From: a virus
Lineage: Duplodnaviria; Heunggongvirae; Uroviricota; Caudoviricetes
Reading direction: 5' to 3' (one strand)
Virus record (IMG/VR): IMGVR_UViG_2703719367_000013
DNA: 8,398 nt
Positions 1 through 3,000 of this stretch are shown in pieces. Position 1 is the first letter of the stretch. Every line of letters starts with the position of its first letter. The position numbers are program-made.

Positions 1-3000
1 TTAACTTCCGGAGCCACACCGGTGCAAACCTCAGCCAGCAGGGTGTGGAAGTAGGACATTTTCATGTCAGGCCACTTCTTTCCTGATCGGGGTTTTGCTA
101 TTACGTTGTGAATTTCTGAAGCTGTGATGACGCCGAGCCGTAATTTGTGCCACGCATCATCTCCCTGTTCGACAGCTCTCACGTCGATCCCGGTACGCTG
201 CAGGATAATGTCCGGTGTCATGCTGCCACCTTCTGTTCAGTGGCTTTTTGTTTCAGGAATCCAAGAGCTTTTACTGCTTCGGCCTGTGTCAGTTCTGACG
301 ATGCACGAATGTCGCGGCGAAATATCTGGGAACAGAGCGGCAATAAGTCGTCATCCCATGTTTTATCCAGGGCGATCAGCAGAGTGTTAATTTCCTGCAT
401 GGTTTCATCGTTAACCGGAGTGATGTCGCGTTCCGGCTGACGTTCTGCAGTGTATGCGGTATTTTCGACAATGCGCTCGGCTTCATCCTTGTCATAGATA
501 CCAGCAAATCCGAAGGCGAGACGGGCACACTGAATCATGGCTTTATGACGTAACATCCGTTTGGGATGCGACTGCCACGGCCCCGTGATTTCTCTGCCTT
601 CGCGGGTTTTGAATGGTTCGCGGCGGCATTCATCCATCCACTCGGTAACGCAGATCGGATGATTACGGTCCTTGCGGTAAATCCGGCATGTACAGGATTC
701 ATTGTCCTGCTCAAAGTCCATGCCATCAAACTGCTGGTTTTCATTGATGATGCGGGACCAGCCATCAACGCCCACCACCGGAACGATGCCGTTCTGCTTA
801 TCAGGGAAGGCGTAAATTTCTTTCGTCCACGGATTAAGGCCGTACTGGTTGGCGACGATCAACAATGCGATGAACTGCGCATCGCTGGCATCACCTTTAA
901 ATGCCGTCTGGCGAAGAGTGGTGATCAGTTCCTGTGGGTCGACAGAATCCATGCCGACACGTTCAGCCAGCTTCCCAGCCAGCGTTGCGAGTGCTGTACT
1001 CATCCGTTTTATACCTCTGAATCAATATCAACCTGATGGTGAGCAATGGTTTCAACCATGTACCGGATGTGTTCTGCCATGCGCTCCTGAAACTCAACAT
1101 CGTCATCAAACGCACGGGTAATGGCTTTTTTGCTGGCCCCGTGGCGTTGCAAATGATCGATGCATAGCGATTCAAACAGGTGCTGGGGCAGGCCTTTTTC
1201 CATGTCGTCTGCCAGTTCTGCCTCTTTCTCTTCACGGGCGATCTGCTGGTAGTAACGCGCCCAGCTCTGAGCCTCAAGACAATCCTGAATGTAATAAGCG
1301 TTCATGGCTGAACTCCTGAAAATGGCTGTGAAAATATCGCCCGCGAAATGCCAGGCTGATTAGGAAAACAGGAAAGGGGATTAGCGATTCAGGCCGTTAC
1401 CGCGTCCGTCGAGAAAAACTTCCACGAGCAAATCACGGGTATAAGTGCGCTCGATGCCGCGATGCAGATAAAGCCGTCCGCGTAAATTAGCTGATGCAGT
1501 CCAGGTACCATCTTTGTGTTTGACCAGCATTCCTGGCATGACCGCACCTCGATTAACGGTCTGCGTTCCGTAATGTTGATGAACCATAAAAACTCCTGCC
1601 CGTAAGCTGGGCTGCTGAACATATAGAGACTTCTGCGCGTATTCAGGCGGTGGATGGCCGCCGGTTGTCATAACTAAGTCGCCTCGTTGAAGCGACTGAG
1701 GTATGAAGTGTTGAGTTGATTTCAGCTGGTCACACCGACGTTCACGCGTCCGCTTCACCCCTCGCACTCCCCGGAGCCTGCTGAAATTCAAGCTGCGGAT
1801 CTAAGCGGTCATCGCAACGGTGAAGTTATAAATTTTGTGATACCAACATCGATGCAATAGCATGACAATAGCAATGGCTATTGGTGTGGTCAATAGCAAT
1901 TAGTATTGATAATGTTTGATATACTTGTTCTGATTGATAATTAAATGAATTTTTATAAAAAAGAGTATGAAGACTTATTGGTGTGGCTGAAATTTGTACA
2001 GCTTTAATGTGCCTCGTGACAGAGGGGCATCGGGTTGTGGTGAACTCGGTAGGTTGGCAGCAAATTTAATCGAATATTGGTAGTCTGAGTTCTTATGTGT
2101 ATTTTTTTAGTCAGTTGCTAAATGATACATAAATGACTTATTAGCCCCGCCATCGCTTTGTACGGGGCGTTTATTTAATTTATCTTTTCAACATTTCCAT
2201 GAATCAACAAGTCGTAGGCAAGAAATAGTTTCCTATACTGGGTTTTTAAATTGTCAACGTCGCATGCCTTGAATTGAACAAACGCTTCTTTTTTAACATA
2301 ATCTTCAATCTCCTCTTTGGGGATATTTTTTATGTTCTTAATGACTATAGACAATTCTTTGTACTTTTTGAACGTTGCATCCTTTATATCTTTGATGTTG
2401 GTGTAAATTTTATTTGCATTGATTTTATCTAAGGTGATTTTATTGAGCAAGTCGTCTAGTTTTCCGTGGCGTTCAATGCGTTGATTTAGTTTTAACACAT
2501 ATTTAGCTGGCAAACTTAACTCTTTCAAATTACATGAGGTTATAGTTTTTGAAAATGGAAGTTGTAATGAGTTTACTGAACCTAATATGAAATCTATGGC
2601 TAATTTATTAGATATTTCATTTTTATTAAATAAGTAGTCTTCAAGATAATTTATTTCTTTAACTTGTGTGAATACATACTTTTTATCGCCTAGAGCAACA
2701 ACTAAATTTTTTCCTTGTTTAACACTTTCTTCAAGTCTGTCTAAGTCAGAAGGTGAAACCAATAGAGTATCTAAGTGCCCTTTTTCACCCTCATTAATGA
2801 TAAGTGTTTTAATGGCTCTTTGATACCTTAAAACATCATAAGGTGAGAGCCCTTCATCAACAGCACTGATCTCATCATAGATCTGTTTATAGTTATCTGT
2901 TTTAACAGATGTATATGTAATTTGTAGCTGTTGATCGGTAATCTGTTTTGGTACTACTTCTTGTTCATTCTCTTTATATTCAATCAAAATTATTCTTTCA

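Follow-up and report, generated by a model that had tools for sequence, protein, structure and literature searches.

The stretch of DNA analyzed here (the window), 8,398 bp from the IMG/VR virus record IMGVR_UViG_2703719367_000013, is by its gene content the early region of a lambdoid prophage, and it carries a short repeated sequence at two places, an oL-like region and an oR-like region between which the CI repressor gene lies. At a probability of roughly 0.88, these repeats are the halves of operators belonging to a textbook lambdoid CI/Cro switch with the repressor specificity of the Salmonella phages ST104 and BTP1. The CI dimer encoded at 3889-4581 would recognize an 18-bp dyad, with one 434-like helix-turn-helix (HTH) on each 7-bp half, and five such dyads are present, two at oL and three at oR. 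We infer binding, cooperativity, activation of the PRM promoter, and the order of site occupancy from the sequence. A first-pass annotation of the window had already proposed the repeats as operators for this CI, and the proposal passed every computational test, namely, promoter overlap, conservation, and co-variation with the recognition helices.

Proposed operator sites and promoters

The 9-mer TTGCTATTG, which the first-pass annotation described as common to the oL and oR regions, is indeed shared between them. Counted on either strand with at most one mismatch, it has 10 matches in the 8,398 bp compared with 3.04 +/- 1.65 in dinucleotide-preserving shuffles, and none of the 200 shuffles reached 10. 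Seven of the 10 matches fall within 1855-1899 and 4626-4685, which together amount to about 1% of the window. The copy numbers first given were too low, as there are four copies rather than three at oL and three rather than two at oR:

1855-1863, oL region, one mismatch
1866-1874, oL region, exact
1875-1883, oL region, one mismatch, opposite strand
1891-1899, oL region, exact
4626-4634, oR region, exact
4651-4659, oR region, one mismatch
4677-4685, oR region, one mismatch

The repeated 9-mers do appear to belong to operators, as had been suggested, but the unit is an 18-bp dyad (7+4+7) of which the 9-mer forms only a part, the right half-site plus the two central bases. The perfect inverted repeat CAATAGC-AATG-GCTATTG had been recognized at oL, with an end coordinate one base too far (1866-1883, not 1866-1884), and the 18-bp pattern CAATAGC-N4-GCTATTG, allowed up to three mismatches, finds three matches in the window against 0.42 expected. 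At oR, two of the putative operators had been noted earlier as single half-sites and the third, oR3, had been missed, so that what appeared as scattered copies is a set of three evenly spaced dyads. It was because the half-sites of oR3 have an ACG/CGT flavor that this site escaped the 9-mer search. The five dyads are given below with their scores against a matrix built from their ten half-sites only:

oL1, 1866-1883: CAATAGCaatgGCTATTG, CAATAGC-aatg-GCTATTG; perfect dyad, 23.9 bits, with a homologous site in all relatives
oL2, 1891-1908: CAATAGCaattAGTATTG, CAATAGC-aatt-AGTATTG; 25 bp center to center from oL1
oR3, 4592-4609: TTATACGcttgCGTATTG, TTATACG-cttg-CGTATTG; 17.5 bits
oR2, 4617-4634: AAACACGttttGCTATTG, AAACACG-tttt-GCTATTG; 15.1 bits
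oR1, 4642-4659: TAATACGcattGCTATTA, TAATACG-catt-GCTATTA; 21.0 bits

Within each cluster, neighboring dyads are separated by 7 bp and thus stand exactly 25 bp apart, center to center. The consensus that we propose for the dyad is YAATA(G/C)(C/G)-N4-(G/C)(C/G)TATTR, with half-site centers 11 bp apart.

The dyads are placed in a consistent manner over three promoters, which were located by consensus scan only:

PL, 1893-1865, minus strand: -35 TTGACC (1893-1888), 17-bp spacer, -10 TATTGT (1870-1865), upstream TG; reads leftwards to kil, gam, and bet
PR, 4632-4660, plus strand: -35 TTGATT, 17-bp spacer, -10 TATTAT, upstream TG; reads rightwards into cro
PRM, 4617-4589, minus strand: -35 TTGACC (4617-4612), 17-bp spacer, -10 TAAATT (4594-4589)

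PL and PR share one register, in which the promoter-proximal operator lies over five of the six bases of the -10 element and the next operator over three of the six bases of the -35 element. At PL, oL1 covers the spacer and most of the -10 (five of six bases) and oL2 overlaps the -35 by 3 bp; at PR, oR1 covers the spacer and five of six bases of the -10, and oR2 overlaps the -35 by 3 bp while also abutting the -35 of PRM. The remaining site, oR3, is inside PRM between its -35 and -10. The promoter argument is one of position and register and not of the scan alone. This register also accounts for the recurrence of the 9-mer, because both promoter hexamers (TTGAnn at -35 and TATTrT at -10) draw on the right half-site GCTATTG/A: GCTATTG followed by A yields the TTGA of the -35, and GCTATTrT contains the -10. 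The cI start codon at 4581, which is also the RefSeq start, is 7 nt past the -10 of PRM and has no Shine-Dalgarno sequence, and the cI mRNA is therefore probably leaderless.

In the proposed switch, CI bound at oL1 and oL2 would cover the -10 and -35 of PL and turn off leftward early transcription, and occupancy of oR1 and oR2, over the -10 and -35 of PR, would repress cro and rightward transcription. From oR2, abutting the -35 of PRM, CI could activate its own, probably leaderless, gene, and oR3 would serve either in negative autoregulation at high CI or in the repression of cI by Cro.

One 9-mer copy at oL stands outside this scheme:

1855-1863, minus strand: orphan half-site ATGCTATTG, near the PL start point

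The orphan is in direct, not inverted, orientation to the left half of oL1, 11 bp away, and forms no dyad (matrix score below 9). It occurs only in the oL variant of the window type and is absent from the PhiR68_2 type, from ST104, and from other oL regions. Given the lack of a dyad and its confinement to one oL family, its function is doubtful. A terminator at 1877-1897 was considered and rejected, as the hairpins on both strands there are the inner halves of oL1 and oL2. For a third oL site, the matrix scan of the window found nothing of at least 9 bits beyond oL2. In some relatives a third, weaker oL dyad follows oL2 at a distance of 20 bp instead of 25 bp (locus L005 at 1222-1239 and locus L010 at 6893-6910), and candidates at this distance include TAATGCTAATTGCTATTA, which scores 15.0 bits in Raoultella, and TGATAGCTATTGCTATCA, which scores 11.4 bits in Klebsiella phage RAH1.

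Co-variation of predicted operators and recognition helices

CI is a protein of 230 amino acids that belongs to PHROG 4 and combines an N-terminal Pfam HTH_3 domain (E 1.8e-6) with a C-terminal Peptidase_S24 domain (E 1.3e-18), the latter bearing the S24 marks GDSM, KRL, and the Ala-Gly in VSAGPG. The helix 3 region reads GVAQPTIWRLTSG, and the HTH is 434-like: among PDB matches, the 434 repressor (residues 6-67, E 1.6e-5 to 1e-4) is the closest solved relative, and UmuD is also matched (E 1e-4). In relatives with an intact cro, the product is a YdaS-type Cro of 75 aa whose helix reads GVAQPTVWRW, compared with GVAQPTIWRL in CI. Since AQPTVWRW in the Cro helix so resembles AQPTIWRL in that of CI, the Cro of these relatives would be expected at the same sites, and the common motif is consistent with competition between CI and Cro for a single set of sites.

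In all loci that have the sites, the CI segment from helix 2 to helix 3 reads GMSQGALAKASG(V/I)AQPTIWRL, and the Cro helix reads GVAQPTVWRW, or VKQPTVWRW in ST104. Two loci depart from this, one in Klebsiella grimontii (L011) and the other in phage PhiR5_1 (L013). In both, the scaffold and the C-terminal domain of CI are retained (75-82% identity), with a helix 3 that reads GVSQAAIQKIETG (SQAAIQKIETG) and a Cro helix that reads VSQQAVYKW. Neither locus has any match to the window operator matrix, and the cI-cro gap contains ACAACC..GGTTGT-type dyads instead, such as AAAACAACCATAGTTTT (about 4850-5010 in L011 and about 3380-3520 in L013). This joint change of operator, CI helix, and Cro helix is the strongest evidence, short of a binding assay, that the CI and Cro helices read the dyads. 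The two families also make a natural specificity-swap pair on one scaffold (AQPTIWRL with CAATAGC versus SQAAIQKI with ACAACC), on which the evolution of HTH specificity could be studied directly.

Conservation in related prophages

The matrix was applied to loci that were not used in building it, 6-10 kb each, from ST104, Klebsiella phage RAH1, three Kluyvera species, Citrobacter pasteurii, and Raoultella lignicola. Matches of at least 15 bits make up a triplet at 25-bp steps between cI and cro and, at PL, a pair with the same 25-bp step, and none lies outside these two regions of the 6-10 kb loci; the middle oR site of Citrobacter reaches only 11.9 bits. In shuffled versions of the window, matches of at least 15 bits occur at 0.035 per window. 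A PL operator cluster is present in every relative with enough flanking sequence. A blastn search with the oL region against the phage collection recovered only its first 45 bases, as the oL of related phages is too diverged for it, and it was the matrix scan that found it.

Set side by side, the 18-mers are almost invariant, and the oR2/oR1 spacer, the oL1/oL2 spacer, and the flanks differ freely. The 25-bp step from oL1 to oL2 is kept in the ST104, Klebsiella, Kluyvera, Citrobacter, and Raoultella loci. In the relatives shown, oR3 varies only at its last base (G or A), oR2 is nearly invariant (one relative has tttc as the central four bases), and oR1 is conserved while the 7-bp spacer between it and oR2 varies freely. 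Mean column entropy over 33 distinct oR sequences is 0.15 bit for oR2 and 0.43 for oR1, compared with 1.12 for the spacer between them and 0.90 downstream. The oR3/oR2 spacer is conserved, as would be expected of a segment that forms the -35 of PRM.

The expectation that the repeats would be conserved in prophages with the same repressor was borne out in a set of 80 IMG/VR loci with a CI 99-100% identical to that of the window. At the threshold used, the oR triple is present in 72 of the 80. The oL pair accompanies it in 69 of these 72, and in the remaining three the available sequence extends only 0.9-1.7 kb to that side. These loci with nearly identical CI contain two diverged oL families and many cargo inserts, and the distance from oL1 to oR3 ranges from 1711 to 2727 bp.

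Alternative explanations

Several observations weigh against the CI/Cro operator interpretation. The weakest dyad is oR2, with a self-symmetry of 6/18 and a left half, AAACACG, that fits the consensus at 3/7 positions, and its conservation could be partly owed to the two -35 elements that it touches. More generally, promoter function rather than repressor contact could account for part of the conservation of the right half-sites. Promoter-like matches are not enriched in the region (9 versus 12.8 in shuffles). The entropy of oR3 is uninformative, as oR3 served as the alignment anchor and the measure is circular, and the conservation counts do not represent independent events because many of the relatives are close kin. 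Finally, no binding experiment for the window repressor or for any repressor of the ST104/BTP1 type was found in the literature.

It is also conceivable, if improbable, that the sites are real binding sites with a different unit, either single 9-mers bound by monomers or in tandem, or the repeat GCTATTG-N7-CAATAGC (1877-1897) made up of the inner halves of neighboring dyads. The gaps between half-sites alternate between 4 and 7 bp, so both registers exist inside the clusters, and the N7 repeat is the hairpin found at 1877-1897 in the terminator scan; the orphan at 1855-1863, in direct orientation and 11 bp from the next half-site, is a further point in favor. However, with N7 the outermost half-site at either end of each cluster has no partner, whereas the N4 register uses all six half-sites at oR and all four at oL. 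The N4 centers at oR (cttg, tttt, and catt) are almost invariant in relatives, in contrast to the freely varying 7-bp gaps of oR2/oR1 and oL1/oL2, and most phages with an identical CI have no orphan copy. The dimers of 434-type and P22-type HTH proteins have a one-turn geometry, with half-site centers 11 bp apart, and the 11-bp separation of the N4 halves suits a 434-like HTH dimer while the 14-bp separation in N7 does not.

Another explanation, which we consider somewhat less probable still, attributes the likeness of oL and oR to shared promoter architecture or to common descent of PL and PR from a duplicated promoter cassette, with no repressor recognition involved. It is true that the 9-mer contains both promoter hexamers, TTGAnn after GCTATTG and TATTrT within GCTATTrT, and that PL and PR align along their whole length. 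Yet oR3 and all of the left halves fall outside the PR and PL hexamers and are nonetheless conserved and dyad-related, relatives with another recognition helix have equally good promoters with a different dyad, and the two-half matrix finds sites only at the two regulatory regions. The least likely of the explanations considered, and one to which we give very little weight, is that another protein binds the sites, either the YdaT-type CII-like activator encoded at 4939-5484 or a host factor. A sequence at 4626-4639, TTGC-N6-TTGG, does resemble TTGC-N6-TTGC, the lambda CII site to which PMC2629481 refers in connection with epsilon34, but the product of 4939-5484 is a YdaT-domain protein and not a lambda-type CII, and YdaT of CP-933P acts on a promoter between ydaS and ydaT rather than on the operators (PMC8630535). 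Moreover, the operators of the K. grimontii and PhiR5_1 loci change together with the CI and Cro helices, and the cII-like gene of PhiR5_1 has the same annotated length, 540 bp, a comparison of length only.

A possible fourth site at oR

The first-pass annotation had also pointed to a longer block shared between oL and oR. Such a block exists, but the copies are not collinear, as 1891-1914 (CAATAGCAATTAGTATTGATAATG) and 4677-4694 (CAATAGGAATTGATAATG) differ by a 6-nt indel. The oR copy, 4677-4694, is in fact a shifted reading of another operator-like 18-mer:

4671-4688: TAATACCaataGGAATTG, TAATACC-aata-GGAATTG; matrix 16.3 bits, on par with oR2 and oR3

Its center is 29 bp from that of oR1, it covers about +5 to +22 of PR, and it overlaps AGGA, the Shine-Dalgarno sequence of cro. 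Relatives in Klebsiella, Kluyvera, Citrobacter, and Raoultella have CAATACT-N4-GGAATTG at the same offset, preceded by 11 nt that vary, and in ST104 the site is weak (9.3 bits). Conservation of the right half may reflect nothing more than its role as a ribosome-binding site, an explanation that does not extend to the left half. Whether this is a functional fourth repressor site, downstream of the PR start and over the ribosome-binding site of cro, is on balance doubtful, and we offer it as a tentative suggestion. If CI or Cro did bind here, a roadblock or a fourth cooperative partner would be added to the classical three-site design, in a parallel to CP-933P, where footprinting revealed four 18-bp palindromes. 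Such binding might also be relevant to BTP1, a phage of the same immunity type whose spontaneous induction is reported to be unusually high.

Comparison with known systems

The arrangement resembles that of lambda in most respects (for lambda, see in part PMC8630535). As in lambda, cI and cro are divergent with three evenly spaced dyads in the gap, the operators lie over the -10 and -35 of PR and PL, the middle site is beside the -35 of PRM and the third site inside PRM, and cI starts a few nucleotides after the PRM -10 and is probably leaderless. A second cluster of operators, at PL, is some 2.7 kb distant, cargo genes occupy the interval from cI to PL, and CI has a RecA-sensitive S24 domain. 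The differences are that the operators here are 18 bp (7+4+7), as opposed to 17 bp of the TATCACCGC type with an unrelated sequence; that the N-terminal domain of CI is 434-like, the PDB search having returned no lambda repressor; that only two oL sites are clear and no N gene is annotated between PL and kil; and that Cro is a YdaS-type HTH protein and the CII analog a YdaT-domain protein. The earlier suggestion of an immunity type distinct from that of lambda is thus upheld by the CAATAGC-type operators and by the absence of lambda repressor from the PDB matches.

The closest match in specificity is to ST104, whose CI shows 85% identity as a whole and no difference at all from helix 2 through helix 4 (GMSQGALAKASGVAQPTIWRLTSGNARGSTKIVEIANALGV), and whose Cro helix differs at a single residue (VKQPTVWRW). 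The oR sites of ST104 are TTATACGcttgCGTATTA, AAACACGttttGCTATTG, and TAATACTcattGCTATTA, and those at its oL are CAATAGCattgAGTATTA and CAATACGttttGCTATTA, in the same 25-bp steps as in the window. Given the same CI contact region, a nearly identical Cro helix, and the same operator layout, the predicted immunity specificity is the same as that of ST104 and BTP1. These phages differ from the window prophage in having a Salmonella host and a P22-like podovirus backbone, as well as another cargo gene, oL flanks, and cro leader. The ST104 type is among the predicted repressor specificities of Villafane et al. 2008 (PMC2629481) and is shared by BTP1 according to Owen et al. (PMC5322425). The operators are described in neither paper, the literature that could be searched has this type solely as a 'predicted specificity', and a search of it with the operator motif strings found none in a phage context and returned only unrelated papers, so the operator sequences of this specificity seem never to have been published before.

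The nearest experimentally dissected relative in architecture is CP-933P (Sp12), with its regulators PaaR2, YdaS, and YdaT. It likewise comes from the O157:H7 lineage and has a YdaS-type Cro, a YdaT-type CII, and a leaderless repressor gene (PMC8630535). Evenly spaced 18-bp palindromes over its PRM and PR bind both regulators, as determined by electrophoretic mobility shift assay and footprinting, and similar operators are found at its PL promoter (PMC8630535). The intergenic region of CP-933P holds four sites (PMC8630535), which may parallel the fourth site considered here. In contrast to the window, its half-site consensus is GTTTAGTAA rather than CAATAGCAA, PaaR2 does not resemble lambda CI in sequence (PMC8630535) while CI here has an S24 peptidase domain, and its cargo is a ParE2 toxin-antitoxin pair as opposed to a SIR2 protein.

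With the 434 and P22 c2 repressors the window shares a dyad operator in which the outer bases are contacted and the center spans 4 bp, and 18 bp in a 7+4+7 layout is the layout of P22 c2 operators. The 434 operators differ in being 14 bp (ACAA...TTGT), and the 434 recognition helix is TQQSIEQL versus AQPTIWRL here; that of P22 c2 differs from AQPTIWRL as well, and P22 c2 is not among the PDB sequence matches of CI at E values up to 0.01. HK022 immunity, suggested in a GenBank note for ST104, was rejected for the window, as only the C-terminal domain is shared with HK022 CI and the HTH region of the latter reads KVTPKAISKWFNG; the 8-kb HK022 immunity region has no matrix match above 10.1 bits. 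As judged from these comparisons, the specificity is not that of lambda, 434, P22, or HK022 but of the ST104/BTP1 type, and it is not unique to the window prophage.

What is new here is only the operator map of a common, uncharacterized immunity type, and nothing is added conceptually to the lambda paradigm. The map (consensus, five sites, spacing, and promoters) is nevertheless concrete and testable for a type that is widespread, ranging over E. coli, the Salmonella phages ST104 and BTP1, and prophages of Klebsiella, Kluyvera, Citrobacter, and Raoultella. It allows cross-immunity to be predicted between prophages of different genera and reporters of induction to be designed.

State of the window prophage

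The cro gene of the window (4692-4914) has a 5-bp deletion between 4767 and 4768, attributable to slippage in a GCCCA repeat and evident from alignment to the phages PhiR68_2 and 4A7, in both of which cro is intact. The deletion falls in the recognition helix, where the translation changes from GVAQPTVWRW to GVAHCLAL and then runs into an early stop, and RefSeq labels the gene 'YdaS family HTH protein, frameshifted'. The window cro is a pseudogene, and the same lesion is present in the O157 Z1626 copy. The O gene (5481-6331) has a 169-bp out-of-frame deletion after 6170 relative to both PhiR68_2 and the strain Z1626 copy, and O is therefore truncated at 239 aa with its C-terminal part in another frame (open reading frame [ORF] 6164-6331). 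As cI and all five operators are intact while cro and O are broken, the window prophage is probably a repressed, replication-defective remnant, in which CI could nonetheless provide immunity and sustain expression of the SIR2 cargo gene.

Genomic context

The genes surrounding the operators are as follows:

bet, 218-1003, minus strand
gam, 1009-1305, minus strand
kil, in the frame of ORF 1381-1791, minus strand; PHROG 294, residues 60-135
SIR2-domain cargo gene, 2175-3782, minus strand; 535 aa, Pfam SIR2_2 (E 1.2e-23), PADLOC PDC-S25 (E 2e-235), RefSeq 'SIR2 family protein'
cI, 3889-4581, minus strand
cro, from 4692, plus strand
cII analog encoding a YdaT-domain protein, 4939-5484, plus strand
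O, then P, then ren, 3' of the cII analog, plus strand

An N-like reading of ORF 1381-1791 was rejected, as Kil is encoded in that frame and no protein family matches the arginine-rich beginning of the ORF. A prophage with 99-100% identity to the segment 1700-2300 occurs in 166 complete E. coli genomes, of which many are O157:H7. Across the cI-cro segment, identity is 96-97% to the cultured phages PhiR68_2, 4A7, 4C10, and Perceval and ~74% in DNA (85% in protein) to the Salmonella phages ST104, SE1, and BTP1.

The SIR2-domain cargo gene takes the place that rexAB occupies in lambda, downstream of cI, and is context only, outside the operator system. Its product is a full-length match to the PADLOC defense candidate PDC-S25. 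Phages with an identical CI have other cargo at the same position (an ASCH-domain protein, a HipA-like protein, PD-lambda-1, or GevT), and the region between cI and PL is therefore a defense-gene hot spot.

Directly downstream of PL, a stretch of 125 bp (1700-1824) recurs with 95-100% conservation in 2210 of 5426 complete E. coli genomes, irrespective of immunity type. There is no annotated gene in this segment and no N-like gene between PL and kil. An Rfam search of the window at E values up to 1 found nothing relevant, and the predicted fold of the PL leader (1690-1860) is no more stable than those of shuffled sequences (z = 0.23), so a put-like or nut-like element is unsupported. Upstream of PL, a block at 1930-1965 is kept across otherwise diverged oL regions, reading TTGATAATTAAATGAATTTTTATAAAAAA in the window and TTGATAGCaaa.GAATTTATTTTT in relatives (about 2000-2030 in locus L001 and about 930-970 in locus L004); an UP element, a site for a host factor, or the end of the cargo operon could each explain it.

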